DNA of 64,000 nucleotides from Gammaproteobacteria bacterium (lineage in GTDB: Bacteria > Pseudomonadota > Gammaproteobacteria > Ga0077536), in contig JAUIFX010000001.1 of assembly GCA_030429865.1 (NCBI GenBank), positions 2,190 through 66,189 of the forward strand, read 5' to 3'. Both the position numbers and the translations under genes were made by a program. Every line of letters begins with the position of its first letter. Within the stretch, counting starts at the first letter, position 1. The notes below the pieces were generated by a model. That model did no database searches. It was not told where the DNA came from and saw nothing but the letters and a program-made list of their open reading frames with translations. Shown one piece after another: positions 8,269 through 30,053 of this stretch.

Positions 8269-9633
8269 ATGAGCGAGCGCCTGCGCCTGATTCCCAGTGC
8301 CGATGTCGCCACCCTGGGCGCACATTGCTACCTTTTCGATCGCGCCGCGCTGCACGAAAACGTGGTGTCGGTGCCGACCCAGCGCGTTTCGCAGCGCATG
8401 CGCGAGGTCGTGCGGCGCATCCGCGCCGCGTGGCCCGACCATGCGCCACACCCGTACGGCGCCTTCGAGGCCCTGTTCGACAGCGCGGCGGAACGCAACG
8501 TGCTGGCGCAGCTGGCGCGTGCCGGTTACCTCGAGGCGGTGCCGCCGGTGGCGCCGGCACCCGGCGGCACGGCGGCGCGGAGCGGACACGCGGAGACCGG
8601 CGAGGCCACCGATCCGGCGGCGCACTTCCGCGAACGTGTCCTGCGCCACTTCTTCAAGCGCCCCGCGTTCTTCCACCTGCCGGAACAGATCGATGACGAC
8701 GACTGTGACGTTGCGCTCGTCGGCGTGCCGATTTCCTCGACGCTGGTCTCGAGCGGCACCGTCGACGCGCCCGCACGCCTGCGCCGCGACAGCCAGCGCG
8801 CCGGCTTCTGGTTCGACTTCCATGCCGACGGCGTCTATACCGAGACCGGCTGCGACGACAGTCCGCCGCGCCTGATCTGCGCGGGGGTGCGCGCGAAGGA
8901 CTTTGGCGACATCGGCAGCGACTGCCGCACCGTCGGCGAACTGTTCGCCCACGCGCGGCAGCTCGTCGACACGCGGCTCGTCCCGCATGGCATCCGCCCG
9001 TTGTTCATCGGGGGCGATCACGCGGTGACGTTCCCGCTCGTCGATGCCTACCTCCATCACCACCCGGGACTCGTCCTGATCCATCTCGATGCGCACAACG
9101 ACCTCTTCTACACCGAGCGGGTCGAGTTCAACCATGCCGGCCCGGTGCACGGTTTGCTCGTCCACTCCGGGCTCGACAAAGTGCTCTCACTCGGACTGCG
9201 CACCATCGGGGATCCCCGCGTCGGCCCCTACAAGCGCCTGGCCGCGAGCGGTGCGCTGCGCGAACGCGCGCACCTCTACTCGCTGCGGGCACTGGAACGC
9301 TGGCTCGACCGGCCAAGCGAGTTCCAGGCCCACCTGCGCGAATGCATCGGCGTTGACCGGCCGTGTTACCTCACCATCGATCTCGACGTACTGTCGGCCG
9401 ACTGCATCGCCGGACAGCTGTCGACCCCGGCAGGTCCCGGGCTCGGCTGGCACCAGCTGCTCGAGATGGTCCGCCTGGTGACGGAGACCTTCGACGTCGT
9501 TGCCTGCGACGTCGTCGAATTCAACCCGGATCACAAGGATCGCCCGGTCGACGATGCGCGCGAGATGACCGTCCTGCTGCTCGAGCTGATCGACGGACTC
9601 GCGCGCTGCGCGCGGCGCATCGTGCCGCCCTGA
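8269..9633 (+). CDS. Arginase/agmatinase/formiminoglutamase (ureohydrolase) family protein with ~150-aa N-terminal extension; candidate peptide arginase
   Basis: Ureohydrolase metal-binding motifs GGDHAVTFPLV, HLDAHNDL, TIDLDVLSADCIAG. Sits directly upstream of the NHLP precursor. Peptide-arginase role is inferred from context (OspR-type enzymes). Confidence 0.8.
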   Translation: MSERLRLIPSADVATLGAHCYLFDRAALHENVVSVPTQRVSQRMREVVRRIRAAWPDHAPHPYGAFEALFDSAAERNVLAQLARAGYLEAVPPVAPAPGGTAARSGHAETGEATDPAAHFRERVLRHFFKRPAFFHLPEQIDDDDCDVALVGVPISSTLVSSGTVDAPARLRRDSQRAGFWFDFHADGVYTETGCDDSPPRLICAGVRAKDFGDIGSDCRTVGELFAHARQLVDTRLVPHGIRPLFIGGDHAVTFPLVDAYLHHHPGLVLIHLDAHNDLFYTERVEFNHAGPVHGLLVHSGLDKVLSLGLRTIGDPRVGPYKRLAASGALRERAHLYSLRALERWLDRPSEFQAHLRECIGVDRPCYLTIDLDVLSADCIAGQLSTPAGPGLGWHQLLEMVRLVTETFDVVACDVVEFNPDHKDRPVDDAREMTVLLLELIDGLARCARRIVPP

Positions 9634-9963
9634 CGCCTGCGCTGCCGTGCACCACGCCGGGGCCGCCGTGACACGCCGCCAGGGCGTAACGGGCGATGTC
9701 CGGCAATACCTCGCCACTCGCTTCATCCGTTGTTGACGTGCCACCGGGGCCGTGCTCTCCTAGCCGGGCATCGGCAGTCAGCCCTCGGCTCCAGCGCTTC
9801 GGCGTCGACCGGTAGCGGGCAGCGGATGGCAGGGATGGTGCGCGCCCGGGGCCGCTCGACACGGCCTTCGACGCGACGCGATTAACGGGGCAGGTGCGTG
9901 CACACGCGCATCCGCGACGTCAGCCTTACGACGAAGAAAACCTGATAACGAGGGAGATAACAA

Positions 9964-10338
9964 ATGGCTCAATCACTCCAGCAAGTAGCCGAGCGCATTC
10001 ACAAGGTGAAAGAGGAAGTGGCCGTCCAGGCAGTCCAGGACGACGACTTCCGCGAAGCCCTGATGAGCAACCCGACTGCCGCCCTGTGCGAAGAGTACGG
10101 CCTCGAGCCGAGCTTCTTCGAGAACATCTCGGTGCGCGTCGAGGTCGAGAACCCGAACGAAGTGGTCATCGTGATCCCGGCCGAGGCGGCCGAGGAAGAA
10201 CTCAGCGACGAGCAGCTCGAGGCAGTCGCCGGAGGCGCCGCCTTCATCGCCGGTGTTGCGGCCGGTGCCGCGGTCATCAGCGCTGCCGCCGCTGCGGGGA
10301 CCATCGTGCAGAACACCCGCGCGGGACGCCGCTGGTAA
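9964..10338 (+). CDS. NHLP (nitrile hydratase leader peptide) family RiPP precursor
   Basis: 124 aa. Leader ...NPTAALCEEYGLEPSFFENISVRVEVENPNEVVIVIPAEAAEEELSDEQLEAVAGG matches the NHLP consensus, including the LSDEELEAVAGG double-Gly cleavage motif. Core AAFIAGVAAGAAVISAAAAAGTIVQNTRAGRRW. Strong SD (GAGGGAG) 7 nt upstream. Confidence 0.85.
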   Translation: MAQSLQQVAERIHKVKEEVAVQAVQDDDFREALMSNPTAALCEEYGLEPSFFENISVRVEVENPNEVVIVIPAEAAEEELSDEQLEAVAGGAAFIAGVAAGAAVISAAAAAGTIVQNTRAGRRW

Positions 10339-10430
10339 GCAACCAGGGACGCGCCGCCGGTTCCTGCTCACCCCGTCTCTCCAGGCATGGCGTGACGCGG
10401 CGAGGCGCGCGGCGAACGGCGCTACCAAGC

Positions 10431-10461
10431 GCCGGCGGCGGGCAGGAGGCCCGCCGCCGGC
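10431..10461 (+). terminator. Perfect 12-bp GC stem-loop downstream of the precursor gene (putative attenuator/partial terminator)
   Basis: gccggcggcggg-caggagg-cccgccgccggc, perfect inverted repeat with 7-nt loop, followed by GGUGAUGAUUUCCU. Lies between the precursor stop (10338) and the next ORF. Confidence 0.4.
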
Positions 10462-10493
10462 GGTGATGATTTCCTGAGCACGAGGCGCCTCGG

Positions 10494-10688
10494 ATGAGCC
10501 TGCGACCCCATAAACGCAACCGGATCCTGGCGCTTGCCTTCCTCGCGCTCGGCCTCACGTTCGCGGCGCTTGCCCTGGCCGGAGGCGAAGCACGACTGAC
10601 CCTGGGTCTGGCGGCGCTGACCAACCTGCTCGCGGCATTCGTGTTCTACCAGCAGCAGCGCGGCCGGGACGACTCGGGGGCCGACTAG
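10494..10688 (+). CDS. Small membrane protein (64 aa, two predicted TM helices)
   Basis: MSLRPHKRNRILALAFLALGLTFAALALAGG...LAALTNLLAAFVFYQQQRGRDDSGAD. Hydrophobic; immunity or accessory role is speculative. Confidence 0.35.
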   Translation: MSLRPHKRNRILALAFLALGLTFAALALAGGEARLTLGLAALTNLLAAFVFYQQQRGRDDSGAD

Positions 10689-10983
10689 ACCGTCCGCGCG
10701 CGCCGCGCGCCGCTCCGCGAGACCCGACGATGACTGCTTTCGCGCCCGACGCCGGGGCCTGCCGCTGGTCGACGCGCTGGCGTTGCCGTGCGCCAGGGCC
10801 TGCACCGTCAGCCCGGCGCGGGCGGGCCGCGGTGCATCACGGAGACCGTATGCCGAAACCATCGGGCGCCAGCACCGGCGTCGCGCGCAGGATTCCCCGG
10901 GTGCGCGCCGTGCCGCCCGGCTGCCCGCCAGCGAGCCGCCGGCACGCTTCGGCCGCCGCGCGCGGCTGGACGACCCGGGCCGC

Positions 10984-12162
10984 ATGAGCGGCTTGGACTC
11001 CGGGCGCCGGACTGCCGTCGACGCGCGCAGTCCGCACGACTTCAGCGTGGCCGACTACCTGCGCCCCCTCGCACGCGACCTGCCGCCAGCGCTGGTCGCG
11101 GCCGCGGCGCGCGATGCGATCATCGACCTCGCCGCGCAGCTGCCGGGCGCGATCACGAGCTTCTGCGGCTTCGAATGTCCACTCGGCAGCGTCGAGGCCC
11201 GCGCCGACTTCCTGCTCTGCAGCACGCGCGAAGAAGGCCATGCCAGCGTGCTCGCGGGTACGCACGGCGAGAGCGCACTCGCGCCCGCGCTGCGCGCGCT
11301 GCCGGCCTGGCAGCGCGTCGCGGAATTCTCCCGCGCATGGCTCGGCGGGGATGGCCTGCTTGCCGACCACCTCATGAACACCTGGCTCGAGTTCGACATC
11401 GGCCGCGACGCCGAGGCGCTCGCCGCGCCGAGCATGTTCTTCGGCACCCACCCTCCGCCGCCCGGCGCCGCTTCGCGCGCCCAGCTCGATGTCCTGCTCG
11501 CGGCACTGGCCGTGCTCGATCCGCCGGCCGTGCTGGGTCACCGTCGGCGCGCACTGGAAGCCCTGCTGGGAGCACTGCCGCCGGGCTGTCACGTGTTCCA
11601 GGTCGGTGCGATGTGGTCACGCGGTCAAGCGGCGGTACGGCTGTGCCTGCGCGGCGTCGAGCGTTCGGCCGTACCGTCCCTGCTCGGCGCGCTCGACTGG
11701 CCGGGATGCCGTGAAGACGTCGCCGTCCTGCTCGACACCGTGGGCGCACACGCGAGCCGCGTCGACGTCGATCTCGATCTCGGTGACCAGGTCGGTCCCA
11801 AGCTCGGCCTCGAGTGTTACTTCGGTACGGATGCCGGCAACGCCGCACGCCTCGCCGCGCTGACCGCGGCGCTCGTGCGCCACGGCGCGTGCACGCCGGC
11901 CGAGGCCGCGGCGCTCGATGCCTACCAGGGACTGACCCTGCAGGATGCCGCCCCGGCCGACTGGCCGCCTCATCTCGCCGCGCTCGCGCGTGCCGGCGGC
12001 CGCGGGCTGAGCAGCGCGCTGTGCCGCTGGGTGCACCACGTCAAGCTCGTGCACGAACCCGGCGCGGCACTGAGCGCGAAAGCCTACCTCGCCGTCGAGC
12101 ATCACCTGCTGGACCGGCGCCAGCTGCGCGCGCACATCGACGCCATGCGCAGCGGCGCCTGA
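10984..12162 (+). CDS. Hypothetical protein (392 aa), first gene of the translationally coupled modification operon
   Basis: Internal ATG (MSGLDSGRRTAV...) chosen because the upstream part of the track ORF (from 10783) is R-rich. No family recognised. Stop lies 6 nt before the halogenase start. Confidence 0.5.
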   Translation: MSGLDSGRRTAVDARSPHDFSVADYLRPLARDLPPALVAAAARDAIIDLAAQLPGAITSFCGFECPLGSVEARADFLLCSTREEGHASVLAGTHGESALAPALRALPAWQRVAEFSRAWLGGDGLLADHLMNTWLEFDIGRDAEALAAPSMFFGTHPPPPGAASRAQLDVLLAALAVLDPPAVLGHRRRALEALLGALPPGCHVFQVGAMWSRGQAAVRLCLRGVERSAVPSLLGALDWPGCREDVAVLLDTVGAHASRVDVDLDLGDQVGPKLGLECYFGTDAGNAARLAALTAALVRHGACTPAEAAALDAYQGLTLQDAAPADWPPHLAALARAGGRGLSSALCRWVHHVKLVHEPGAALSAKAYLAVEHHLLDRRQLRAHIDAMRSGA

Positions 12163-12168
12163 TCCCCG

Positions 12169-14727
12169 ATGCACGGCCCTTCCCCCGAGTACGACCTGGT
12201 CGTCGCCGGCGGCGGCCCCGCCGGCACCACGCTCGCCACGCTGGTCGCACGTGGCGGCCATCGTGTCCTGCTGCTCGAAGCAAACCGCTTTCCCCGCTAC
12301 CAGATCGGCGAGTCCCTGCTGCCGGCGACCTTCAACGGCCTGTTCCCGCTGCTCGGTATCGACGCCGACCCCGGCCGGCTGGGCGCACCGGTGCTCAAGC
12401 GGGGAGCGACGTTTCACTGGGGGCGCGACGACGACCTGTGGACGATGAACTTCGGCGGCGCGCCGGACGACACCGAACCCGCGCCCGACTGGCCGACGGC
12501 GTTCAACGTGCGCCGCGAGGTCTTCGACGACGTGCTGCTGGGCGCCGCCCGCGCGGCCGGTGTCGAGGTCCGCGAGGGCGCCCGCGTCACCGCTATCGAC
12601 GCCGACGGGGAACGCGTGCGCGGCGTCGAGGTGGGCAGCGACGACGGCACCCGCTGGCACGCGCGCGGCCGCTTCGTCGCCGGCGCAACCGGCCAGGGCT
12701 GTCCACTCGCGGCGCACGTCGGCACGCGCCAACCCTCGGTGTTCTTCCGCAACGCCTCGGTCTTCGGCTACTTCCATGGCGGCGCACGCCTGCCGGGCGC
12801 GCTCGCCGGCAACGTGCTGCTGGAAGCCTTCGACCAAGGCTGGGCGTGGTACATCCCGCTCAACGACGAACTGACGAGCGTCGGCGTGGTGCTGCATCAC
12901 CCGCACACGCAGCGTCTCGGCGGCGACCGCGAGGCCGCGTTCCGCGACAGCCTCGCGCGCTGCACCTACATCGACGGCTACCTGCGCGGAGCGCGTCGTG
13001 CCACCACGCCGCCCTACGCCGGGCTGCGCGTGCGTTCGGAGTTCTCCTACACGCACGCGCGCTTCTGGCGCGCAGGTGCGCTGCTGGTCGGCGACAGCGC
13101 CTGCTTCGTCGACGTGATTCTCTCCTCGGGCGTACACCTGGCGACGTTCGGTGCACTGCAGGCGGCGCGCGCTCTCAACGCCGTGCTCGACGGCGAATTG
13201 CCCGAGCGCCTCGCGCTCAACGAGTTCGAGCTGCGCTACCGTCTCGAGTTCACCCGCTTCTACCAGGGGCTGCTCGGCCTGCACGACATGGCCCACGATG
13301 GCGCCACCTACCGCGAATGGCTGCGCGGGATGCTGCGGCGTACCCAGGGCGTCTACCTCGACGACGCGGCGGCGCCGCCGGCGCAGCGCCGCCGCACCTG
13401 GCAGGCGCTGGCATGGCTGCGCAAGCAGAACGCGCAGCTGGTGGCGTCGACCGCGCCGCCCGCAATGGATGCCGCGGCCGCGCTGCCCGCGATCGCCGGT
13501 GAGCTGCTCGTGCATGCCGATGGACTGCGCTTCGCGCGCGCCGCCGAACAGACCGATGCCGGCGACGCGCCCGATCCGCGGGTCGACACGCCGCTCTACG
13601 ATTACGGCAAGCTGCACGCCAGCGCCGCTCCCTACCTGCAGGCCTGTCCCGACGGCGTCGACGGTGCGCTCGCGCTGGTCACGGCCGCGCGCAGCCGTGG
13701 CATCCACCTGCGCGTACGCGGCAGCGGGCACACCTTCAGCGGCGCGAGCCTGCCGCGCGAAGGCGAGGTGCTGGTGCGTACCAACGGCCTCGATCACTAT
13801 CACTTCCACGCGCCTGGCCGGCTCGTCGCCGGCGCCGGCGCCATGGTCTGGGACATCCGCGATCTCGCCCGCGACCACGGCTTCGACCTGCCCGTCTATA
13901 ACGGCGGTTGGGCCGGACCGACCCTCGGTGGCTACATCTGCGCCGGCGGGTTCGGCAAGAGCGGCCTGTCGGAGGATGCCGGCGGGCTGTGGGAGAACAT
14001 CTATGCCGTGCGTCTCGTCGACGGGCATGGGACGCTGCGCACGATCACGCGCGACGACGACGCCTTCCCGTGGCTGTTCGGCAGCTCCGGCCAGCTCGGC
14101 CTGCTGGTCGATGCCGAGCTGCGCCTGGTGCCGTACGCCGATGCCACGGGCGCGCCGCGCTACCCGGTCGATGAACGTGGCCGCGTACCGCGCCGCCAGG
14201 TCGATGACCCGCGCCTCAACGACGTCGCGCCACGGCCCGACGACGACAAGCGGCTGTTCTGGTTCACCTTGCTGGTGTCACCGGCGGAGGAAGCCGACGC
14301 CTGGGCCGGCCTCGAGCAGCTCGTCCTCGATCACCGCGACGTGCTCGTGCCGGATGGCGGCTGGGCCGGCCCGCAACTCGACGGTGCGCCGATCGGCTAC
14401 CGCTACGTGATCCGTTTCCACGAGTTCAACCCGCCGCTGGTCTACCCGCGCGCCGAGACGTTCCTGTGCATCGGCGTGATGAGCCTGCTCGCCAGTGGCG
14501 ATGCCGGGAGCGATGCGCGGCTGCGTGCGATCGAGCGCGATTTCGTCGCACTCGCGCGGACGCGCCGGCTGCGCCTGTACCTGCAGGCGGAAAACATCAC
14601 CGGGCAGGTAGACCAGCGCCGTTATTACGGGCGTGCGACCTGGGAACGCTTTCTCGAACTCAAACGCGACTTCGACCCCGCGGCGCTGTTCAATCGCGAC
14701 GTCGTCTTCCCTCCCGATGCGCTATGA
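12169..14727 (+). CDS. Fusion protein: flavin-dependent (tryptophan-type) halogenase N-terminal domain plus FAD-linked oxidase (PCMH-type FAD-binding) C-terminal domain
   Basis: N-terminus DLVVAGGGPAGTTLA (GxGxxG), GESLLP, and the halogenase signature WxWxIP (FDQGWAWYIPL). C-terminal half has RVRGSGHTFSGASL FAD-binding motif and oxidase-like body. Single uninterrupted 852-aa ORF. Confidence 0.8.
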   Translation: MHGPSPEYDLVVAGGGPAGTTLATLVARGGHRVLLLEANRFPRYQIGESLLPATFNGLFPLLGIDADPGRLGAPVLKRGATFHWGRDDDLWTMNFGGAPDDTEPAPDWPTAFNVRREVFDDVLLGAARAAGVEVREGARVTAIDADGERVRGVEVGSDDGTRWHARGRFVAGATGQGCPLAAHVGTRQPSVFFRNASVFGYFHGGARLPGALAGNVLLEAFDQGWAWYIPLNDELTSVGVVLHHPHTQRLGGDREAAFRDSLARCTYIDGYLRGARRATTPPYAGLRVRSEFSYTHARFWRAGALLVGDSACFVDVILSSGVHLATFGALQAARALNAVLDGELPERLALNEFELRYRLEFTRFYQGLLGLHDMAHDGATYREWLRGMLRRTQGVYLDDAAAPPAQRRRTWQALAWLRKQNAQLVASTAPPAMDAAAALPAIAGELLVHADGLRFARAAEQTDAGDAPDPRVDTPLYDYGKLHASAAPYLQACPDGVDGALALVTAARSRGIHLRVRGSGHTFSGASLPREGEVLVRTNGLDHYHFHAPGRLVAGAGAMVWDIRDLARDHGFDLPVYNGGWAGPTLGGYICAGGFGKSGLSEDAGGLWENIYAVRLVDGHGTLRTITRDDDAFPWLFGSSGQLGLLVDAELRLVPYADATGAPRYPVDERGRVPRRQVDDPRLNDVAPRPDDDKRLFWFTLLVSPAEEADAWAGLEQLVLDHRDVLVPDGGWAGPQLDGAPIGYRYVIRFHEFNPPLVYPRAETFLCIGVMSLLASGDAGSDARLRAIERDFVALARTRRLRLYLQAENITGQVDQRRYYGRATWERFLELKRDFDPAALFNRDVVFPPDAL

Positions 14728-17358: not shown

Positions 17359-18133
17359 ACGCGGCGCACGCAAGACCGTCGTGACGGCGACACCCGCGAA
17401 CGCCCTGGTCAGCCGCGCCGCGGTGCTCGACGAGGCTGCCTGCGCGGCCATCGCCCAACGCGTGCACGCCCTGCGCGCGCACTGGGTCGCGCGCGACGCG
17501 GCCGCCTTCCACACGCTCGGCGCCGCGCTCTACCTCGACCGTCCGACGGCCGCGACGCGTGAACGCTTCGGTCTCGCCGATGCCGACCCGGCGCGCTACG
17601 GCACGCTCGCCCGCGCGACGAACACCCTGCTCGAAGCCGGCTTCGCCGAGCTCTACGCCGCCTTCGCCGACGCGCTCGCCGGCCTGCTCGATGCCGACGT
17701 ACGCTACGCGGCCGACCGCGCCCGCCCCGGCTTCCACGTCTTCGAGCACCACCCTTCCTACGCCCGGCAGTCCGCGCACGTGCCCCATTTCGACCGGCAG
17801 TACGAGTGCATCGACTGGCCGCAGGCGGCAACCATCGACTTCACGGCGGCGATCTCGATCACGCTGCCGATCCGTTTGCCGGCGCGTGGTGGCGGGCTGC
17901 GCGTGTGGGAGCTGAACCTGTTCGACGTACAGGCGCTGGGTCCCGCCGCGGCGCGCGAACGCGCGCGCCGGGCGCCCTCGCGCGTACATCGCTACGTGCC
18001 GGGTGAACTGGTCTGCCACCGCGGCCACCTCCTGCACCAGATCCAGCCCTGGCCCTCGCGGCCCGGCGACGAGCGCATCACGCTGCAGGCGCACGGCCTG
18101 TTCTACGACGGTGCCTGGCAACTCTACTGGTAG
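17342..18133 (+). CDS. Putative Fe(II)/2-oxoglutarate-dependent oxygenase-like protein
   Basis: Candidate HxD...H facial triad (HVPHFD ... CHRGHLLH). Overlaps the ycaO stop by 17 nt, so last gene of the coupled operon. Family assignment weak. Confidence 0.4.
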   Translation: MDACCERGARKTVVTATPANALVSRAAVLDEAACAAIAQRVHALRAHWVARDAAAFHTLGAALYLDRPTAATRERFGLADADPARYGTLARATNTLLEAGFAELYAAFADALAGLLDADVRYAADRARPGFHVFEHHPSYARQSAHVPHFDRQYECIDWPQAATIDFTAAISITLPIRLPARGGGLRVWELNLFDVQALGPAAARERARRAPSRVHRYVPGELVCHRGHLLHQIQPWPSRPGDERITLQAHGLFYDGAWQLYW

Positions 18134-20185: not shown

Positions 20186-20264
20186 GTTTCCGAGAGTATT
20201 GCCGCGCGCCAGTATCCGGGGCACCGTGCGCGAATGCCAGTGCCGTGAGCAGACCCGATCGAGA

Positions 20265-22392: not shown

Positions 22393-24637
22393 GCAAGCAG
22401 CGCCTCCGGCCAAGAAGGCCCCGCCCGAGATCAAGCACCCGCGCGTGCGCACGCCGTCGGTGCTGCAGCTCGAGGCGGTCGAGTGCGGCGCCGCGGCGCT
22501 GGCGATGATCCTCGGCTATTACAAGCGCGTCGTGCCGCTGACCCAGCTGCGCCGCGAGTGCGGCGTCTCGCGCGACGGCAGCAAGGCCTCCAACGTGGTC
22601 CGCGCGGCGCGCCGCTACGGCATGGAGGCGAAGGGCTTCACGAAGTCGATCAAGAAGCTCTACGACATCAAGCCGCCGTTCATCGTGTTCTGGAACTTCA
22701 ATCACTTCGTGGTGTGCGAAGGCTTCGGCAAGGATCGTGTCTACCTCAACGACCCCGCCGTCGGTCATCGCAGCGTGACGCACAAGGAGTTCAACCGCGG
22801 CTTCACCGGGGTCGTCCTGGTGATGAAGCCGGGACCCGAGTTCACGCCGGGCGGGCGGCTGCCCAGCGTGGTCGGCAGCATCCGCTCGCGCCTTGCCGGA
22901 TCCGGCCGCGCGCTCGGCTTCTGCTTCCTCACCGGGCTGCTGCTGGTGATTCCGGGGCTAGCCGTGCCGGCCTTCAACCAGGTCTACATCGATGCGGTGA
23001 TCCTGCAACAGCGTACCGACTGGCTGCGACCGCTGCTGCTTGCGATGGGCGTGTCCGGGGTACTCACCGCGGCGCTGCATTTCATGCAGTTCCGCTTCCT
23101 GCGCCGGCTCAAGATCAAGCTTTCGATCAAGTTCTCGAGCAAGTACCTGTGGCACCTGCTGCACCTGCCGGCCAGCTTCTACGCGCAACGTTTCGCCGGC
23201 GAGATCGCCAACCGCAGCCAGATCAACACGAAGCTCGCCGACCTGCTCTCGGGACGCCTCGCGACGACCGCGATCGACGTCACGATGATGGGCTTCTATG
23301 CCGCACTGATGTTCTACTACGACGTCATTCTGACCCTCATCGGCATCGGCTTCGCGATCATCAACGCCTTCGTGCTCAAGGTCATTTCGCAAAAGCGCGT
23401 CGAGACCAACATGCGCGTGCTGACCGAGTACGGCAAGGCCCAGGGCACCGGCATGGCCGGCCTGCAGAGCATCGAGACGATCAAGGCCGGCGGCCTGGAA
23501 TCGGGCTTCTTCGGCGTCTGGGCGGGCTATTACGCCAAGGCCGCCGTGGCACGCCAGGATCTCGAGATGTCCAACCAGTGGCTGGACATCACGCCGACCC
23601 TGCTGACCGCGCTGACCAGCGCCGCGATCCTGTGTTTCGGTGGCCTGCGCGTGATGCACGGCGAGATCTCGATCGGCATGCTGGTCGCCTTCCAGAGCCT
23701 GATGGCGAGCTTCCTCGCGCCGATCAACGAACTGCTCAGCCTCGGCGGCACGTTCCAGGACATGCGCGGCGACCTCGAGCGCGTCGACGACGTGCTCGAC
23801 AACGACACCATGCCGACGCCCGAGGTCGAGGAACTCGTCGACGAGAACGGCGATAGGGTCACGCGCCTGAAGGGCTACCTCGAGCTGCGCGACGTGACCT
23901 TCGGCTACAGCCCGCTGGACAAGCCACTGTTCGAGAACTTCAATCTCAGCGTCGCACCGGGCCAGCGCGTCGCGCTGGTCGGTGGCAGCGGCTCGGGCAA
24001 GTCGACGCTCGCGCGCATGATCTGCGGCGAGTACGAACCGTGGTCCGGCCAGGTCCTGCTCGACGGCCTGCCGCGCAGCCAGATCCCGGCCGACGTCCTG
24101 CGCAACTCCTTCGCCGTGGTCGACCAGGACATCAGCCTGTTCGAGGGCAGCGTGCGCGACAACCTCACGCTGTGGGACGACACGGTGCCGGAGATCAACC
24201 TGCGTCATGCGCTGCAGGACGCGGCCGCCCACGAATTCGTCATGGCCATGGCCGGCGGTCTCGACGCCAAGCTCGCCGAGGGTGGCATCAACCTGTCCGG
24301 CGGCCAGCGCCAGCGCCTGGAAATCGCGCGCTCGCTGGTACTCAACCCGGCCGTCCTGGTCTTCGACGAAGCGACCAGCGCCCTCGACGCCGATACCGAG
24401 GGCGTGGTGATGGAGCGGCTGCGCATGCGCGGCTGCAGCGCGGTACTGGTCGCACATCGCCTGAGCACCGTGCGCGACAGCGACCTCATCCTCGTGCTCA
24501 AGTCCGGCCAGGTCGTCGAACAGGGCACACACGAGGAGCTGTGGGTGCTCGATGGCGAGTACGCCCGCCTGATGCGCGCCGACCAGGAACCCATCGTCAC
24601 CATCAGCGAAGAAGCAGACGACGACGGCGATGACTGA
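22385..24637 (+). CDS. ABC transporter with N-terminal C39 peptidase domain (leader-peptide-cleaving exporter)
   Basis: C39 active-site region LQLEAVECGAAALAMILGYY; six-TM permease; Walker A GGSGSGKST; ABC signature LSGGQRQR; Walker B VLVFDEATSALD. TTG start overlapping the HlyD stop. Confidence 0.9.
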   Translation: MAEQAAPPAKKAPPEIKHPRVRTPSVLQLEAVECGAAALAMILGYYKRVVPLTQLRRECGVSRDGSKASNVVRAARRYGMEAKGFTKSIKKLYDIKPPFIVFWNFNHFVVCEGFGKDRVYLNDPAVGHRSVTHKEFNRGFTGVVLVMKPGPEFTPGGRLPSVVGSIRSRLAGSGRALGFCFLTGLLLVIPGLAVPAFNQVYIDAVILQQRTDWLRPLLLAMGVSGVLTAALHFMQFRFLRRLKIKLSIKFSSKYLWHLLHLPASFYAQRFAGEIANRSQINTKLADLLSGRLATTAIDVTMMGFYAALMFYYDVILTLIGIGFAIINAFVLKVISQKRVETNMRVLTEYGKAQGTGMAGLQSIETIKAGGLESGFFGVWAGYYAKAAVARQDLEMSNQWLDITPTLLTALTSAAILCFGGLRVMHGEISIGMLVAFQSLMASFLAPINELLSLGGTFQDMRGDLERVDDVLDNDTMPTPEVEELVDENGDRVTRLKGYLELRDVTFGYSPLDKPLFENFNLSVAPGQRVALVGGSGSGKSTLARMICGEYEPWSGQVLLDGLPRSQIPADVLRNSFAVVDQDISLFEGSVRDNLTLWDDTVPEINLRHALQDAAAHEFVMAMAGGLDAKLAEGGINLSGGQRQRLEIARSLVLNPAVLVFDEATSALDADTEGVVMERLRMRGCSAVLVAHRLSTVRDSDLILVLKSGQVVEQGTHEELWVLDGEYARLMRADQEPIVTISEEADDDGDD

Positions 24638-27551
24638 CGCGCGCACGATCACCATTCCGCGCGCGGAGCTGCGCCGCCTCGGTGCGCGCAAGATCCGCAT
24701 TCTCGGACATCACCCGCTGGTCCTCGACGATCCGTCGCGCATGTGGATCATCGCCGCAGGCGAGGTTTCGGTGATGACTTCCCACGTCGATCGCGGCCTG
24801 CCGGTCGGCCTGCGCCAGCTGGTCTTCGAGGCCGGTGTCGGCACGCCGCTGTTCCCCGTCTCCGACGGACGCAGCGAGGATGCCGAACGGCTCATCGTGA
24901 CCTCCACTGCCGAGGTCACCTTCTACGAAGCGCCGCTGCGCGCGGCGCGCGAGCTGCTCGCACTGATCGGGCTGTCGCTGCGCGAGGCGATCGACGACTG
25001 GACCAACAAGTTGTCGCGTTTCGCCGCCCGCGAGGAAGTGTTTGCCGGCGCCGACCGCTTTCCGCACGAGGGCAAGTTCGGACTCGCTGACGGCATGCTG
25101 GTCTCGGTCAGCCCGAACCAGGTCGCCTGGCTGCAGATCGAGAGCGGCGACCTGAACGCGTTCGGCGATCCGGAACTCGCCGTCGGCACGCTGCCGTTCT
25201 ACATGCCGGTGGGCGGCGAGATCTGGTTCCAGGCCGCCGACGAAACGCGCGTGCGCGTCAGCGACGAACTCGCGAATGCCTCCGACCTCGACCTCGTGCG
25301 TGGCCTGGCGCTGTTCAATTCGCTCCTGCAACGCCGCCTGCGCCAGTTCGAGCGCGCCGCCCAGGAAGCCGAGCGCGAACGGCTCGAACGCTCGGCACAA
25401 GTCGAATCACGCATCTTCGACGGCACGCTCGAGAAACTCGCCGGCGTGCTCAACCGGCGCGAAACCGTGCCGCAGCGCGAAAGCCTGCTCCTGACCGCCG
25501 CGACCATCGTCGGCAACGACCTTGGTGTTGCGATCGCGCCGCCCGCGCGCTCGGAGGATCCGCGGCGCATGAAGGATCCCGTCGAAGCCATCGCCCGCGC
25601 TTCGCGCCTGCGCCACCGTACCGTGATCCTGGCCGGCCGCTGGTGGGAGAACGACAACGGGCCGCTGCTCGCCTACCTCGAGGACGACGACATCCCGGTC
25701 GCGCTGGTGCGCGACCAGTGGCACGGCTACCAGATGACCGATCCGCGACACGGCGTGGCCGTGCCGGTGACACCCGACATCGCCCTCTCCCTCAAGCCCA
25801 AGGCGGTCATGTTCTACCCGCGCCTGCCCGAGAGCGTGCGTACCGCCTGGGCCGTGCCGCGCTTCGCCATGCGCGGCCGCATGTGGGACATGATCTTCGT
25901 CGCCCTGCTGTCGCTGACCATCACCGGCATCGGCATGCTGGTGCCGCAGGCGACCGCGCTGATCATGGACAACGCGATCCCCGATGCCAATCGCCGCCTG
26001 CTCGCCGAGCTCGGCGCCGGACTGGCCATGGCGGCCTTCGGCGCCGCCCTGTTCGGCATCGCCCAGGGGATCCTCAGTATCCGGCTCGGCATCCTCTCCG
26101 ACAGCGTCAGCCAGTCGGCCGTGTGGGATCGCCTGCTCAGCCTGCGCCTGCCGGTGTTCCGGCGCTTCTCCAGCGGCGACCTGCTCGACCGCGCGATGTC
26201 GGTCAGCGCGGTCAACCAGGAGATCAACGGCCAGGCGATGCGCACCATCCTGACCAGCGGTACCGCCCTGCTCAACCTCGGCCTGCTCTACTACTACAGC
26301 AGCAAGCTCGCCTGGATGGTCGCCGGCATCGGCATCACGATAGTCATCTTCACGCTCGCGGCCGGCTATCTGGCGCGACGCCACTACCGCCGCCTGATGG
26401 AACTGCAGGGGCCGTTCTTCGGTTTCGTCGTCGAGCTCGTCAACGCGGTCAGCAAGATCCGCATCGCCGGCGCGCAGCGGCGCGCTTTCGCGCGCTGGGC
26501 CGATCGCTACGTCGAGCAGCTGCACCTGATTCTCAAGGCGCAGAGCATCGAGGACTACGTGTCGGTGTTCAACCTGCTGATCCCCCTGGTCAGCGCCATG
26601 TTCCTGTTCTGGATGGGCGTGGAGATGCTCAACGCCGAGGGCGAGCAGCGCCTCAGCGTGGGCGTCTTCCTCGCCTTCAACACGGCCATGGGCACGTTCC
26701 TCGGCGGCGCCACGACGCTGTCCATCATGGGACTCGAATTCCTCGACACCATGGCCAAGGCGGCGCGCGTCAAACCGCTGCTGGTGGCACAGAGCGAGAT
26801 CTCCGACGATCTCCGCGACCCCGGCCGCCTGAGCGGTCAGATCGAGTTCAAGGACGTCCATTTCCGCTACGGCGAGGACGGCCCGCCGGTGCTCCGGGGC
26901 GTCAGCTTCCGCGTCATGCCCGAACAGTTCGTCGCCTTCGTCGGCCCCTCGGGCAGCGGCAAGTCGACGATCATCCGGCTCCTGCTCGGCTTCGAGGAGG
27001 CCGAGGCCGGGGTCGTCGCCTACGACGACCAGGACCTGACCGGGCTCGACATCACCGCCGTCCGGCGCCAGCTCGGCGTCGTGCTGCAGACCGCGCGTAT
27101 CAACTCGGCCTCGATCTTCGACAACATCGGCGGCGGCGCCGAGATCACGCTAGACGAAGCCTGGGAGGCGGCCGAGGACGCGGGCTTTGCCGACGATGTG
27201 CGCGAGATGCCGATGGAAATGCACACCGTGATCAGCGAGGGCGGCACCAACCTCTCCGGCGGCCAGCGTCAGCGCCTGCTGATCGCCCGCGCGCTGGTGC
27301 GCAACCCACGCATCCTCGTTTTCGACGAGGCCACCAGCGCGCTCGACAACAAGACCCAGGCGACCGTCACCGAAGCGCTCGACCGACGCAAGGTCACGCG
27401 CCTGGTCATCGCCCACCGCCTGAGCACGATCCGCAACGCCGACCGCATCTTCGTGCTGGCCCAGGGACGCATCGCCGAATCCGGCACCTTCGACGAACTC
27501 GTCGCCAACGGCGGCATCTTCGCCTCCATGATGGCGCGCCAGATCGTGTAA
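24630..27551 (+). CDS. Second ABC transporter (permease plus ATPase) with N-terminal cNMP-binding-like regulatory domain (NHPM-type)
   Basis: 973 aa; Walker A GPSGSGKST, LSGGQRQR, ILVFDEATSALD; ~350-aa N-terminal non-transporter domain. ATGA-type overlap with the upstream ABC gene. Confidence 0.85.
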   Translation: MTDARTITIPRAELRRLGARKIRILGHHPLVLDDPSRMWIIAAGEVSVMTSHVDRGLPVGLRQLVFEAGVGTPLFPVSDGRSEDAERLIVTSTAEVTFYEAPLRAARELLALIGLSLREAIDDWTNKLSRFAAREEVFAGADRFPHEGKFGLADGMLVSVSPNQVAWLQIESGDLNAFGDPELAVGTLPFYMPVGGEIWFQAADETRVRVSDELANASDLDLVRGLALFNSLLQRRLRQFERAAQEAERERLERSAQVESRIFDGTLEKLAGVLNRRETVPQRESLLLTAATIVGNDLGVAIAPPARSEDPRRMKDPVEAIARASRLRHRTVILAGRWWENDNGPLLAYLEDDDIPVALVRDQWHGYQMTDPRHGVAVPVTPDIALSLKPKAVMFYPRLPESVRTAWAVPRFAMRGRMWDMIFVALLSLTITGIGMLVPQATALIMDNAIPDANRRLLAELGAGLAMAAFGAALFGIAQGILSIRLGILSDSVSQSAVWDRLLSLRLPVFRRFSSGDLLDRAMSVSAVNQEINGQAMRTILTSGTALLNLGLLYYYSSKLAWMVAGIGITIVIFTLAAGYLARRHYRRLMELQGPFFGFVVELVNAVSKIRIAGAQRRAFARWADRYVEQLHLILKAQSIEDYVSVFNLLIPLVSAMFLFWMGVEMLNAEGEQRLSVGVFLAFNTAMGTFLGGATTLSIMGLEFLDTMAKAARVKPLLVAQSEISDDLRDPGRLSGQIEFKDVHFRYGEDGPPVLRGVSFRVMPEQFVAFVGPSGSGKSTIIRLLLGFEEAEAGVVAYDDQDLTGLDITAVRRQLGVVLQTARINSASIFDNIGGGAEITLDEAWEAAEDAGFADDVREMPMEMHTVISEGGTNLSGGQRQRLLIARALVRNPRILVFDEATSALDNKTQATVTEALDRRKVTRLVIAHRLSTIRNADRIFVLAQGRIAESGTFDELVANGGIFASMMARQIV

Positions 27552-27716
27552 GTGATGACGTCGCCGGCCGGCCCCACCGGCCGCGCATTGCACCACGGGC
27601 TGCCGCCCACCGCCTGTCCCCGGATCCTCGATAATCAGTATCGATATACTAAAATTAGATAGTTATATCGCTTTTCTCGTGTAAACTCTTACCTGATTCA
27701 GGCACGACGACATCCC

Positions 27717-30053
27717 ATGCAGCAGCCGCGGCCATTCCGTCCCCGAGCCCCGCGCCACGCCGCCGGCGCGCGCCTGCTGGCGCTCGCCGGCAGCACCCTG
27801 CTGCTCGCCGCCTGCAGCACCCGCGTGCCGCACCCGCTGCTCGACGAGGCGACCGAACGGCAGGCGACGACCATCGAGCTGTCACAGCCGCCGGCCGTCG
27901 ACGGCGCACGGGGCACGCGCGCGTCGGCCGTGACGCCGGCCGCGGACGACCCGGTCGCGGCCCCCAACGGGAGCTCGGCGAACCAGCAGCCCGCGGACAC
28001 ACCGGCCGGCACCGACACGGTTGCCGAAAGCCCCCGTCCTGCGCCGGCCGGCGCAGCGCAATCCGCCGTGGACGCACCGGTGCCGGAAGCCGCCGCCGGC
28101 GCCGCGAGCCCGCCGCCGCAGCTGCCCATCGGCATTGCCGACGTGCGCAGCCAGGCCATCGGCAACAATCTCGAGATCAAGACCGAGCTCGTCCGCCCCG
28201 CACTGCTGCGCGAGGATCGCCGCGAGGCCGAGGCACGCTTTCTGCCGACCGCGTTCGCCCGCTACACCTATTCCGCGTTCGACGAGCCGGGCGTCGCACC
28301 GACGCGTAATCCCAACGGGTCGACCACCGACGACGCCGAGCTCGGCATCGTCGTGCCGCTGCAGACCGGCGGCAGCGCGCGCGTCAGCGTACCGATCACA
28401 CGCACCGACTTCGGCGTCCCCGGCATCGAGAACGTGCACGACGCGGCGACCACTTTCTCGCTCAGCCAGCCGCTGCTGCGCGATGCCGGCCGTCACGTGA
28501 ATATCGCACCGATCACCGTCGCGCGGCTGCGCGAGCGCCAGCAGGACGCACAAACCAAGCTCGCCATTCTCAACGTCCTGGCGGGGGCGGATCGCTTCTA
28601 CTGGAATCTCTATGCCGCCTCGCGTGCGGTCGAGGTCCGCCTGCAGCAGTACGAACGCGCCAAGGAACAGGAGCGCCAGGCCGTGCGCCTCGCCGAGGAA
28701 GGCGTGGTGCCGGCGATCGAAGTGGTCCGCGCGCGCTCGGGCGTCGCGCGGCGCGTCGAAGACATCATCCGCGCCGAGAACACCCGCCGCCAGGTCGAGC
28801 GCGAGATCAAGCGCGCCATGAACCGGCCCGACCTGCCGGTCACCGGTGCCACCGCGCTACTCGTGACCACGCCTCCCGACCCGGTCGAGATCGTGATCGA
28901 CCGGCCCGCGGCGCTGGCCAGCGCGCTGGACAACCGCATGGAGCTGCTCAACCTCGAACTGCAGCTCGCCGTCGATGCGCTCTCGGTCGACGTGGCGCGC
29001 AACCAGAAGCTGCCCAGCCTCGCGCTCGACTACAGCTTCCGCTACCTCGGTGCGAGCAACGAGCTGGCCGAGGCCTTCGAGCAGATCGGCCGCACCGATT
29101 TCGCCAACCAGAGCATCGGGCTGACGCTGGAAGTGCCGCTCGGCAACCAGGCGCGCGTGGCGCGCTACAACCGCGCCGTACTGCAGCGAGCGCTGACCGC
29201 CGCGAACCGTGCCCAGCAGGCCCAGATCATCGAGCGCCAGGTGCTCGATACGGTCGACCAGCTCGACGAGGCGTGGCAACGCATCCTCGCAGCACGCGAG
29301 GAGACGCTGCTGGCCGCGCGCAACTTCCAGGCCGAACAGCGCCAGTTCCGCGCCGGCGTGCGCACCAGCACCGACGTCCTCATCGCCGCCGACTTTCTCG
29401 CCGATGCCCAGATCAAGGAACTCAATGCGCTCGCCGCCTACGAGATTGCCAAGATCGACCTCGCCTTCGTTACCGGCACCCTGCTCGGCAGCGGCAACGT
29501 CCAGCTTGCCTCGTTCGACGAAACCCACGACATCGACGAAGTCTCCGCCGCCGACATCGACAGCCTCGCCCCGATGCCGCCGAGTCCGCCGGTGTCGACC
29601 CAGGAGTCGATTGCACGCAAGCTCGAACGCCTCGACGTCAAGGCGCCTTCGGCGGCGTCGGTGCCGGGGATGCCCGACCTGCCGGCGCGTCCCGACGCGA
29701 TCCGGCCCGGTCTCAACCCGTCGGCCGTGCTGCCGGCGCGGCCCGCGCCATTGGCACCCGGCACCAGCAGCGACGCGGCCGGCGGCAATGTCGCGAGCGC
29801 CGGCGGCGACGCAGCCGGCGCCGTGGGGACAGCAGGCACCCCGGCCACCATCACCGTCGCCGCCGACGACACGCTGTGGTCACTCGCGCGCCGCTACCGC
29901 CCCGACGACAGCGTCAGCGTGCCGCACATGCTTGCCGCCATCATCGCGGCGAATCCGCGACAGTTCGGCGATGCCAACCCCGACCGGCTGGTGACCGGAA
30001 CCGTCCTGCGCGTCCCCGGCGAGGCGGACCTCGCGGCGACGGCACGCCCCTGA
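27717..30053 (+). CDS. TolC-like outer-membrane efflux lipoprotein with Pro-rich linker and C-terminal LysM-like domain
   Basis: Lipobox LLAAC-S; two outer-membrane-efflux-protein repeats; Pro/Ala-rich linker; C-terminal TITVAADDTLWSLARRYRPDD...LVTGTVLRVP resembling a LysM peptidoglycan-binding motif. Confidence 0.7.
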   Translation: MQQPRPFRPRAPRHAAGARLLALAGSTLLLAACSTRVPHPLLDEATERQATTIELSQPPAVDGARGTRASAVTPAADDPVAAPNGSSANQQPADTPAGTDTVAESPRPAPAGAAQSAVDAPVPEAAAGAASPPPQLPIGIADVRSQAIGNNLEIKTELVRPALLREDRREAEARFLPTAFARYTYSAFDEPGVAPTRNPNGSTTDDAELGIVVPLQTGGSARVSVPITRTDFGVPGIENVHDAATTFSLSQPLLRDAGRHVNIAPITVARLRERQQDAQTKLAILNVLAGADRFYWNLYAASRAVEVRLQQYERAKEQERQAVRLAEEGVVPAIEVVRARSGVARRVEDIIRAENTRRQVEREIKRAMNRPDLPVTGATALLVTTPPDPVEIVIDRPAALASALDNRMELLNLELQLAVDALSVDVARNQKLPSLALDYSFRYLGASNELAEAFEQIGRTDFANQSIGLTLEVPLGNQARVARYNRAVLQRALTAANRAQQAQIIERQVLDTVDQLDEAWQRILAAREETLLAARNFQAEQRQFRAGVRTSTDVLIAADFLADAQIKELNALAAYEIAKIDLAFVTGTLLGSGNVQLASFDETHDIDEVSAADIDSLAPMPPSPPVSTQESIARKLERLDVKAPSAASVPGMPDLPARPDAIRPGLNPSAVLPARPAPLAPGTSSDAAGGNVASAGGDAAGAVGTAGTPATITVAADDTLWSLARRYRPDDSVSVPHMLAAIIAANPRQFGDANPDRLVTGTVLRVPGEADLAATARP

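Follow-up and report, generated by a model that had tools for sequence, protein, structure and literature searches.

Among peptides made on the ribosome and modified after translation (RiPPs), polytheonamide-type proteusins are made from precursors with an NHLP leader and a long hydrophobic core that receives many tailoring steps. In the srp pathway of sponge symbionts, the flavin halogenase SrpI adds bromine to the C-terminal Trp of the NHLP precursor SrpE (core LCCCW) after cyclodehydration by the YcaO SrpC, and the LxxxxL motif of the leader is needed (PMC10858898). The mpp cluster of Moorena producens PAL employs a Nif11 precursor, MppE, with the core ACWRWSG and a LanM enzyme, MppM. Its SrpI-like halogenase MppI carries out 5-bromination of Trp80 and its ABBA prenyltransferase MppC the leader-dependent C5 geranylation of Trp82, while arginases (MppA/B), an oxygenase (MppG) and a terpene synthase are further encoded (PMC11791876, PMC12715784). 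A third enzyme, PalQ, attaches a prenyl group to the Trp that ends PalX, an NHLP peptide with the core DNVRRFFW (PMC10853753). Here we describe a RiPP biosynthetic gene cluster in a 64,000-nucleotide stretch, hereafter the window, of the chromosome of an uncultured gammaproteobacterium (contig JAUIFX010000001.1, about 70% G+C). It is a genuine NHLP-based cluster of known enzyme families on a known precursor and export framework, for which srp, mpp and PalX/PalQ are partial precedents. The best explanation of its content, which we consider likely, is a pathway that would produce a multiply modified peptide centred on a C-terminal Trp.

The cluster comprises 16 genes over about 23 kb (window positions 6916-30053) that could be assigned without gaps (Table 1). 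Genes were called by third-position G+C and then checked via translation, and four of the calls are identical to NCBI-called proteins. An earlier note on this DNA had drawn the cluster from 8269 to 30053. Its right edge stands, at the end of the OEP gene, and its left edge moves outward to the JmjC gene at 6916; two small membrane-protein genes that it did not list are added. All of the genes that it had named are present where it placed them and belong to the families that it gave, as judged from Pfam, NCBIfam, PDB and fold matches. The tight coupling that it described for the core operon, from the prenyltransferase to the oxygenase gene, is found in spacings of +6, -11, -4 and -17 nt. The second halogenase gene, which it had called divergent, is divergent from the export operon and convergent with the biosynthetic operon.

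The gene order of the cluster is retained in five other gammaproteobacterial metagenome lineages, with protein identities of 40-93%. Four of these (loci L002/L006, L005/L008, L007 and L025) hold all or nearly all of the block, and the sequence of the fifth, the closely related L026, runs only from the JmjC gene to where the fusion gene starts. The shared order begins at the JmjC gene and reaches the second exporter ABC gene in L005/L008, or as far as the OEP gene in L025; L002/L006, L007 and L026 show the same order over the cluster parts that they contain. The halogenase/oxidase fusion protein has about 12 close relatives with 68-81% identity, all from metagenomes or metagenome-assembled genomes (MAGs). 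Because the block is syntenic in at least five lineages with different flanks, we conclude that it is one gene cluster, and the conservation of its order is far beyond chance. The co-occurrence across genomes that the earlier note had proposed as a check is thus borne out, and the genes are not scattered. It remains a general caution that co-location is not proof, but we give next to no credence to the idea of mere neighbours without a common pathway: the order is identical in the five lineages across the whole range of identities, with different flanks in L005, coding regions overlap, and distant sub-modules recur around the same precursor type (YcaO, 2-oxoglutarate (2OG) oxygenase, precursor and prenyltransferase in L029/L030; precursor, prenyltransferase and fusion in L039).

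The borders were drawn by comparison with these relatives. The JmjC gene is kept at the left edge in L005/L008, L025 and L026, and since the genes upstream of it in L005 (flavin monooxygenase-like, peroxidase and luciferase-like) differ from those of the window, the left border was set there. An aldehyde:ferredoxin oxidoreductase gene (5028-6749) was considered as a member and rejected on the same comparison. On the right, the TolC-like gene was included because L025, like the window, has an OEP gene after the second ABC gene. The genes past 30053 for a flippase and an Elm1-like protein were rejected; they have polysaccharide functions and none was seen in the related loci, though these end at or before the OEP gene. 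The hosts of the relatives are labelled 'Gammaproteobacteria bacterium', apart from two MAG records: L007 (CAMCBY010000044.1) is titled 'Klebsiella pneumoniae' and L005/L008 (CAZKRY010000012.1) 'uncultured Klebsiella sp.'. These two labels are almost certainly wrong, the cluster in the window having about 70% G+C.

Table 1. Features of the cluster, with positions in the window and the evidence for each assignment
Feature	Positions	Strand	Evidence
JmjC/Cupin_8 Fe(II)/2OG oxygenase	6916-7785	+	Pfam Cupin_8 3.1e-20, JmjC 1.3e-14; HRD motif at residue 160
123-aa protein, acidic N-terminal part, one C-terminal transmembrane helix	7839-8210	+	translation
Arginase-fold ureohydrolase (PF00491) with extra N-terminal ~140 aa	8269-9633	+	Pfam Arginase 5e-33
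NHLP precursor, 124 aa	9964-10338	+	TIGR03793 59.4 bits, cut-off 50.9
Inverted repeat, 13-bp G+C stem, 5-nt loop	10431-10461	+	perfect stem
64-aa protein, two transmembrane helices	10494-10688	+	translation, synteny
ABBA (PT-barrel) aromatic prenyltransferase, predicted	10984-12162	+	structure model, Foldseek
Flavin halogenase / VAO-PCMH FAD oxidase fusion	12169-14727	+	Trp_halogenase 7.5e-35, FAD_binding_4 1.4e-13
TfuA with C-terminal extension of ~250 aa	14717-16195	+	Pfam TfuA 2.4e-45
YcaO, stand-alone, TfuA-associated type	16192-17358	+	Pfam YcaO 1.9e-65
Fe(II)/2OG oxygenase, predicted fold	17342-18133	+	structure model; no Pfam match
CtcP/PltM-like flavin halogenase with C-terminal extension of ~200 aa	18170-20224	-	PDB 7v0b 6.5e-75
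Cyclic-nucleotide-binding-domain protein, stand-alone	20417-20953	+	Pfam cNMP_binding 2.5e-14
NHLM HlyD periplasmic adaptor	20950-22392	+	TIGR03794 328.5 bits, cut-off 156
C39 peptidase/permease/ATPase (ABC1)	22385-24637	+	TIGR03796 1050 bits, cut-off 853; Peptidase_C39 2.5e-35
Second NHLM ABC protein (ABC2)	24630-27551	+	TIGR03797 840 bits, cut-off 709, residues 286-972
TolC-like OEP protein with FimV/LysM-like C-terminus	27717-30053	+	Pfam OEP 1.7e-34; TIGR03505 55 bits

The precursor is a canonical NHLP peptide, as the earlier note had recognised, and scores above the cut-off of the leader model. Its leader of 91 residues (9964-10236) has the LxxxxL motif LSDEQL at residue 80 and AVAGG at 87-91, and ends in ...EEELSDEQLEAVAGG. 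The core (10237-10335) is AAFIAGVAAGAAVISAAAAAGTIVQNTRAGRRW, 33 residues with a grand average of hydropathy of 0.82 and a pI of 12, lacking Cys and Tyr and containing S15, T22 and T27. Some 7 nt upstream of the start codon, a GAGGGAG stretch can be read as the ribosome-binding site. Weak matches to class II bacteriocin models were also obtained, and the PGAP label of close orthologues is 'NHLP leader peptide family RiPP precursor'. Four orthologous cores (AAFIAAVAAGAAVASAVAATGTIVQSSRAGRSW, AAFIAAVAVAVSAVAVASTTAQATRAGRRW, AAFIAGVAAGAAVVSAVAAAGTIAQNTRAGRRW and FAFTAAVTAGAVAGAATTVAAGGLVQAYTPAGRSW) share with that of the window an N-terminus of the form xxFxA, in which Phe3 is invariant, a hydrophobic body rich in Ala, Gly and Val, and the tail AGR(R/S)W. 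One orthologous precursor record, P0177 (MEQ9061637.1, 139 aa, marked partial), reads past the stop and continues ...AGRRWDTRQHVSDGDDRTQR; the explanation is either an error in sequencing or assembly, or natural variation, in which case the C-terminal Trp would be buried.

The precursor gene is followed, 93 nt past its stop codon, by the 13-bp hairpin of Table 1. The wider region 3' of the precursor folds no better than shuffled sequences (z = -1.3), and G+C-rich palindromic stretches that could form hairpins were also seen by eye 3' of the precursor in L004 and L005. The hairpin may act as a transcriptional attenuator and so control how much precursor is made relative to the enzymes, a suggestion for which the evidence is weak. 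The two small membrane proteins gave nothing credible in Pfam (E up to 1). Homologues of the 123-aa protein occupy the same position in L005, L007, L025 and L026, and the 64-aa protein is kept after the precursor in L002/L004, L007, L025, L026 and L028. The latter, with its two helices, is a candidate immunity or membrane accessory factor.

By its TIGR03793 leader, its LxxxxL and Gly-Gly motifs and its full NHLM export set, the cluster belongs with the NHLP/NHLM systems, and its adjacent tfuA and ycaO genes, which have no E1-like/C-protein partner, place it also with the TfuA-YcaO pathways. No radical S-adenosylmethionine (SAM) domain was found by Pfam or NCBIfam in any of the 16 genes, so the epimerase that defines proteusins in the narrow sense is lacking. 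The cluster genes likewise include no machinery for S-aminovinyl-3-methylcysteine (AviMeCys), neither an HFCD decarboxylase nor a Ser/Thr dehydratase pair, and the core has no Cys. The cluster resembles the polytheonamide pathways in its NHLP leader, its many tailoring steps and its long hydrophobic core, which probably acts on membranes; it differs in having no radical SAM epimerase or C-methyltransferase, no N-methyltransferase and no LanM-type dehydratase.

The likeness to srp lies in the NHLP precursor with LxxxxL and Gly-Gly motifs, the YcaO and the flavin halogenase, which in srp is leader-dependent and modifies the C-terminal Trp. The short srp core, LCCCW, is converted to thiazolines, whereas the window core contains no Cys, and its YcaO has TfuA as a partner. 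SrpI was discovered with a MibH hook, whereas the window halogenases are CndH-like and CtcP/PltM-like, and no prenyltransferase, arginase or VAO fusion is reported for srp. With mpp the window shares a halogenase, a prenyltransferase, arginase and oxygenase genes around an Arg-Trp core, and Trp prenylation in mpp is leader-dependent. The mpp leader ends in ...ELSDSELEAVAGG, near-identical to the end of the window leader, and both leaders are long and structured. The mpp cluster differs in its Nif11 leader, seven-residue lanthipeptide core, LanM and terpene synthase, lacks YcaO and TfuA, and has an SrpI-like halogenase, unlike those of the window. PalX, too, is an NHLP precursor with a conserved C-terminal Trp after Arg residues, and the NHLP domain enhances its prenylation; PalQ, from Paenibacillus alvei, differs in having a ComQ/isoprene-synthase fold rather than ABBA and in belonging to a three-gene signalling cluster without other tailoring.

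The protein encoded at 10984-12162 had been listed in the earlier note as hypothetical. The gene is real, and its product can now be assigned a predicted identity. It has no Pfam or NCBIfam match, and a model built from a 12-homologue alignment (predicted local distance difference test (pLDDT) 87.6, predicted template modelling score (pTM) 0.88) shows five alpha-beta-beta-alpha repeats. All of the top 50 Foldseek matches in the PDB are aromatic prenyltransferases (PriB, IptA, AmbP1, NphB, AnaPT and PagF among them). On the basis of the model fold and these matches, the protein is predicted with high confidence to be an ABBA-type aromatic prenyltransferase. A profile search gave a family of 3,787 representatives at 50% identity with E <= 1e-3, or 1,202 with E <= 1e-30, and the members that were checked carry the public name 'hypothetical protein'. 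The enzyme is probably of the MppC-like, leader-dependent type, because its homologue ARV58828.1 sits in the Nostocales HT-58-2 locus treated in the MppC paper. The supplement of that paper describes this locus as having two Nif11 precursors, LanM and an MppC-like prenyltransferase; our locus L015 (Nostocales HT-58-2) matches these features, and ARV58828.1 is the sole prenyltransferase-like gene identifiable there.

A clue to the substrate came from loci that encode homologues of this enzyme. A degenerate-pattern scan with the prenyltransferase alignment against 185,579 species genomes yielded 15 loci, which beyond the gammaproteobacterial clusters lie in cyanobacteria (Chamaesiphon, Stigonema, Iningainema, Chrysosporum, Nostocales HT-58-2, Prochloraceae and Coleofasciculus), Terriglobia, Dehalococcoidia and Bacteroidota. 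The loci outside the gammaproteobacteria have neither halogenases nor YcaO, and many of them carry genes for NHLM exporters, LanM, metallo-beta-lactamase-fold proteins, 2OG enzymes and DUF7005. An NHLP or Nif11 precursor with Trp at the C-terminus or within four residues of it is present in 9 of 9 genome loci with open reading frames (ORFs) listed and a precursor visible (counted were L009-L011, L013-L015, L018 and L020; L017 showed no precursor). The precursors end in KVKW, RAKW, KNSGW, GGSHW, GGTKW, ATKAW, SKIKW, PKPKW, KQAKW, PKIKW or VNAKW. Precursors with Trp at or near the C-terminus also stand beside prenyltransferase homologues in L023, L029/L030 and L039. The sources of all these loci are cyanobacteria, Terriglobia, Saprospiraceae, and sponge and other metagenomes. 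In the cyanobacterial loci L009-L018, a protein of about 610 aa without a Pfam match always follows the prenyltransferase homologue, often with overlapping genes (L015, 11076-12911). The cyanobacterial loci also encode DUF7005, a pair of metallo-beta-lactamase-fold proteins and a small protein of the 2OG-FeII_Oxy_3 type, and the homologue of the prenyltransferase in L009 is longer, its ORF having 576 aa.

The fusion protein leads to the same type of precursor. Fusions of the two domains in reverse order, with the FAD_binding_4 oxidase ahead of the halogenase, are encoded in L021 (10001-12757) and L023 (10001-12766) and have 43-45% identity to the window protein. Next to them lie NHLM exporters, along with Nif11 precursors that number from one to five. 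The cores of these precursors are rich in Gly, Ala and Val, and their sole aromatic residue is a Trp, which is C-terminal in six of seven cores (ends GGSGW, TGSAW, AGSAW, GSNPW, AGRVW and RVGSW) and penultimate in the other. L023, from metagenome sample NGUY21-1, also encodes a prenyltransferase homologue and TfuA, while L021 has the fusion without a prenyltransferase and shows that the VAO domain can do without that enzyme. L023 further encodes a protein arginine methyltransferase-like enzyme, a P450 and a protein of 598 aa that carries a CxxxCxxC motif. In L029/L030 (344-4631), a YcaO (48% identity), a WelO5-fold oxygenase (41%), an NHLP precursor and the prenyltransferase (32%) stand side by side, and the precursor core AVFCAAIGAALITATGAVTVGAMAATGAVAAAGINSGWGKK ends in INSGWGKK; this arrangement suggests an older module of YcaO, 2OG oxygenase and prenyltransferase. 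L039 keeps the precursor, prenyltransferase and fusion. The ABBA prenyltransferase and the halogenase/VAO fusion are thus tied, by correlation, to Trp-tailed NHLP/Nif11 peptides, which is the strongest mechanistic evidence available for the cluster. An MppC-like prenyltransferase would lipidate the Trp indole, and we regard leader-guided prenylation of core Trp33 as moderately probable.

Both flavoproteins of the cluster are flavin-dependent halogenases, judging from their PDB matches, WxWxIP motifs and catalytic Lys residues, and the first is fused to an FAD oxidase; on both points the earlier note was right. Residues ~1-400 of the fusion are CndH-like (GGGPAG14, K77, WAWYIP225), and the first 380 match CndH (PDB 3e1t, 1e-103) end to end over 376 aligned positions, K77 aligning with the catalytic Lys of the CndH KRG motif. 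Residues ~480-852 form a VAO/PCMH-type FAD oxidase, with cytokinin dehydrogenase-like PDB matches (2e-8) and berberine bridge enzyme-like oxidases also close. The second halogenase is related most closely to the tetracycline 7-halogenase CtcP (PDB 7v0b) and to PltM (2.7e-67), and has the motifs GAGITG26, K102/K103 and WMWVIP252. It has no Pfam halogenase match, nor does its C-terminal extension match anything credible in Pfam (E up to 1); a reading of it as a generic monooxygenase was overturned by the CtcP and PltM matches and WxWxIP. Its start is ambiguous (GTG at 20224 or ATG at 20185), orthologues having 671-688 aa, and the protein collection contains no entry for the form of 684 aa.

By lineage these halogenases appear not to be of the SrpI type, because SrpI was found via a MibH hook and the Trp halogenases RebH, PrnA and Thal match only the first ~60 residues, around the GxGxxG dinucleotide motif (E ~1e-3). 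No chain named MibH is among the best 60 PDB matches. Nevertheless, CndH-like and CtcP/PltM-like halogenases could act on the Trp indole, and we find it probable that one or both halogenate the same indole that is prenylated; that the true substrate is a hydroxylated indole is speculation. A rather improbable alternative is that one or both flavoproteins act as hydroxylases, or act elsewhere, for example on Phe3 after hydroxylation or on the prenyl group. The clades concerned act on phenol, pyrrole or tyrosyl substrates, in NCBIfam the two proteins also match, below threshold, QhpG, which hydroxylates Trp, and the maturases LodB/GoxB, and Phe3 is conserved; yet both keep the halogenase-specific WxWxIP motif and catalytic Lys, and at the reverse-order fusion loci the only aromatic residue available in the core is the Trp at or next to the C-terminus. 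Halogenation of the indole is retained as the preferred reading. Because the halogenase and VAO domains are fused in both orders in different lineages, a coupled function is indicated, and the VAO domain could act sequentially on the same residue or supply reduced flavin.

Two further oxidative enzymes accompany them. The oxygenase-like protein that ends the core operon has no Pfam or NCBIfam match, and its AlphaFold2 model (pLDDT 91.7) matches WelO5 (5t22, 1.3e-9, template modelling score 0.64) in Foldseek, as well as SadA and SnoN. H149, D151, H226, H232, R245 and T247 are invariant in 22 homologues and include a facial triad, H149-x-D151...H, plus R245 as the 2OG-binding Arg. The description of the protein as oxygenase-like in the earlier note thus agrees with the predicted Fe(II)/2OG fold and the invariant triad. 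It is predicted to be a hydroxylase or oxygenase and not an Fe/2OG halogenase, because it has HxD where WelO5-type halogenases have HxG/A. Together with the JmjC enzyme and the VAO-type oxidase, it might oxidise or hydroxylate the Trp or the neighbouring Arg; we see an even chance that at least one of the three acts on the GRRW tail. A second JmjC-like gene, with 35% identity to the window JmjC, lies between the arginase and precursor genes in L007 (7933-8649), which hints that Arg hydroxylation and the arginase are functionally connected.

Peptide arginases of the OspR type, which belong to proteusin pathways, are PF12640 proteins with the motif EEH(N/H)EAF, and KgrD of the enteropeptins is the sole PF00491 peptide arginase described, needing a pre-modified substrate (PMC12703449). 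The earlier note had likened the arginase-fold enzyme of the window to the peptide arginases of proteusin clusters. The fold holds and the family does not: PF00491 alone is matched, over residues 147-424 (115 bits, cut-off 22), and the PF12640 motif is absent. The metal-ligand motifs of a binuclear Mn site are complete (GGDH248, DAHND274, DLDVL371), and the best PDB match is guanidinobutyrase (3nio, 7.7e-17). The N-terminal 144 aa gave no credible Pfam match (E up to 1); a RiPP recognition element (RRE) or PqqD-like domain was suspected there and is unsupported by Pfam over the same range. Like OspR of landornamide, which acts on an NHLP peptide, the enzyme is a ureohydrolase-superfamily member encoded beside an Arg-containing RiPP precursor, and like KgrD it is a PF00491 protein; the KgrD cluster differs, being a short radical SAM/thiomorpholine pathway of Enterococcus, and the window enzyme is set apart by its extra N-terminal ~140 aa. 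We therefore treat the protein as a candidate peptide Arg-to-Orn enzyme, its activity on peptidyl-Arg being read from its position beside the precursor and from the invariant core Arg.

The main competitor is hydrolysis of a free guanidino metabolite, or action only on an Arg already hydroxylated, prenylated or otherwise modified. Guanidinobutyrase, agmatinase and arginase, rather than PF12640 proteins, are the closest structural relatives, KgrD as the one PF00491 precedent requires a pre-modified substrate, the JmjC gene lies two genes upstream, and in L007 the second JmjC-like gene adjoins the arginase gene. However, the arginase gene is beside the precursor in every lineage whose sequence reaches there, the extra N-terminal region is absent from small-molecule ureohydrolases, one Arg of the core tail is invariant, and in mpp, too, arginases occur together with a halogenase and a prenyltransferase around an R-W core. 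We judge this competitor unlikely, though it deserves serious weight. Conversion of at least the invariant Arg to ornithine by the PF00491 enzyme would be the corresponding step of the pathway and is put forward tentatively, at slightly less than an even chance.

The TfuA and YcaO genes form a pair, as the earlier note had stated, with strong Pfam matches. The tfuA gene overlaps its neighbours by 11 nt and 4 nt, the latter overlap being with ycaO, and homologues of the two are adjacent in L002, L005 and L025. TfuA scores 218 bits against NF033432 (cut-off 235), and its C-terminal extension gave nothing credible in Pfam (E up to 1). YcaO scores 178 bits, above cut-off, against TIGR00702, 173 bits against TIGR03266, the YcaO of McrA thioglycine formation (cut-off 365), and 109 bits against the SagD model of thiazole/oxazole-modified microcins. 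No E1-like/C-protein, RRE or azoline dehydrogenase gene was found among the cluster genes with Pfam or NCBIfam. Adjacent TfuA and YcaO genes are also the point of likeness to the thioamitides (thioviridamide and thioholgamide), which differ in having short non-NHLP leaders and AviMeCys enzymes, the latter absent from the window cluster, and in occurring mainly in Actinobacteria. Thioviridamide has an Ala-rich hydrophobic core segment, VMAAA, to which that of the window core can be likened. We lean towards one or more backbone thioamides installed by YcaO and TfuA, for which, by this analogy, the Ala-rich hydrophobic stretch would be the most plausible site.

It might instead be that YcaO forms azolines from core Ser/Thr residues, or an amidine, and that TfuA is otherwise employed. 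The core does contain S15, T22 and T27, the YcaO enzymes of the srp proteusins are cyclodehydratases (PMC10858898), and the SagD and thioglycine scores given above are compatible with such a role. Against it stand the 4-nt overlap and the adjacency of the two genes in three other loci, the lack of E1-like/C-protein, RRE and azoline dehydrogenase genes, the absence of Cys from the core, and the TfuA-YcaO pair itself, which is presented as an established marker of backbone thioamidation where PMC8120280 deals with it. We consider azoline or amidine formation improbable and keep thioamidation as the favoured role.

The NHLP export set with a TolC-like outer membrane protein that the earlier note had described is confirmed, and the HlyD, C39-ABC and second ABC proteins all exceed equivalog cut-offs. 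The N-terminal ~285 aa of the second ABC protein have no credible Pfam match (E up to 1). The stand-alone cNMP-binding protein is best seen as accessory to the export operon; in L002, L005 and L025, its 178-aa orthologues come before HlyD.

Taken together, the 124-aa precursor would be modified while attached to its 91-aa leader, and several of the enzymes would share one target, the invariant GR(R/S)W at the C-terminus. The C39 domain of ABC1 would then cut after Gly-Gly, and HlyD, ABC1, ABC2 and the TolC-like protein would export the product across both membranes. A hydrophobic helix whose tail is cationic, lipidated and halogenated would result; such a product probably acts on membranes, the 64-aa two-helix protein being a candidate immunity factor. 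The thioamidated, halogenated and possibly ornithine-containing peptide foreseen in the earlier note is kept in this qualified form, and the predicted prenyltransferase makes it a lipopeptide centred on the C-terminal Trp. Several points weigh against this pathway. Every modification is read from enzyme family and genomic context. The halogenase clades are known for phenol, pyrrole and carrier-bound tyrosyl substrates, not Trp, and the core has no Tyr. The PF00491 enzyme is closest to small-molecule ureohydrolases (guanidinobutyrase, agmatinase), and YcaO and TfuA both fall short of the equivalog cut-offs in the models for McrA thioglycine formation in archaea. The connection with MppC is indirect, running through the shared HT-58-2 locus, and the W336/F340 (WxxxF) pattern reported for MppC is absent in the ten homologues checked.

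The earlier note had not recognised this combination of enzymes from any characterised RiPP family, and a full-text literature search, from which subscription journals were mostly absent, found no such set; nor did it find a paper joining TfuA or thioamides with a proteusin or NHLP pathway. That the cluster or its product is already characterised is very unlikely. The literature searched leaves out most subscription journals and others have already mined the prenyltransferase family, but no combination of TfuA, NHLP, proteusin, thioamide, halogenase, arginase and prenyltransferase gave a match, and the source names seen for proteins of the cluster are all automatic and all from MAGs ('tryptophan 7-halogenase', 'hypothetical protein', 'NHLP leader peptide family RiPP precursor'). 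A bolder proposal, which we hold to be possible and on balance unlikely, is that the cluster family is a new RiPP class, with the first thioamidated NHLP peptide and a GR(R/S)W tail turned into a halogenated, prenylated and oxidised indole lipid anchor. If this were true, the halogenase/VAO fusion, with domains joined in both orders, would perform coupled chemistry on the C-terminal Trp, the PF00491 ureohydrolase with its new N-terminal domain would represent a second, independent origin of leader-guided peptide arginases, and two phenol/pyrrole-clade halogenases would have been recruited to a peptide.

The rest of the window encodes GcvP, a PAS-GGDEF-EAL protein, amidohydrolases and polysaccharide genes. 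After the flippase gene, an 845-aa protein (31749-34286) matches Elm1 of mitochondrial fission over residues 479-737 (2.5e-47), its N-terminal half having no match; it is probably a glycosyltransferase-type capsule or lipopolysaccharide gene product unrelated to the cluster. A 1,026-aa PAS-PAS-GGDEF-EAL protein (43619-46699) was missed by the third-position G+C filter and is overlapped by an antisense ORF of 1,043 aa without a Pfam match, the high G+C composition yielding many spurious ORFs. A promoter and terminator scan of 6500-21000 revealed nothing promoter-like and only a background level of terminator-like sites; in the whole window, neither Rfam nor a tRNA scan detected an RNA gene.

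No concept is overturned by these findings, and the cluster is a well-supported target for genome mining. For enzymology it offers leads in halogenases outside the Trp clade acting on a peptide, a recurrent halogenase/VAO fusion and a classical-family arginase in an NHLP pathway. If the predictions hold, four types of modification (Trp lipidation, aryl halide handles, ornithine and backbone thioamides), all of them of use to peptide engineering, would occur on one 33-residue peptide, and the leader-guided enzymes could be combined with other NHLP/Nif11 pathways. A 'hypothetical' family of about 3,800 representatives gains a predicted fold and a likely substrate rule, Trp at or near the C-terminus of an NHLP/Nif11 peptide, and the association of the prenyltransferase with Trp tails may serve as a simple rule for genome mining.

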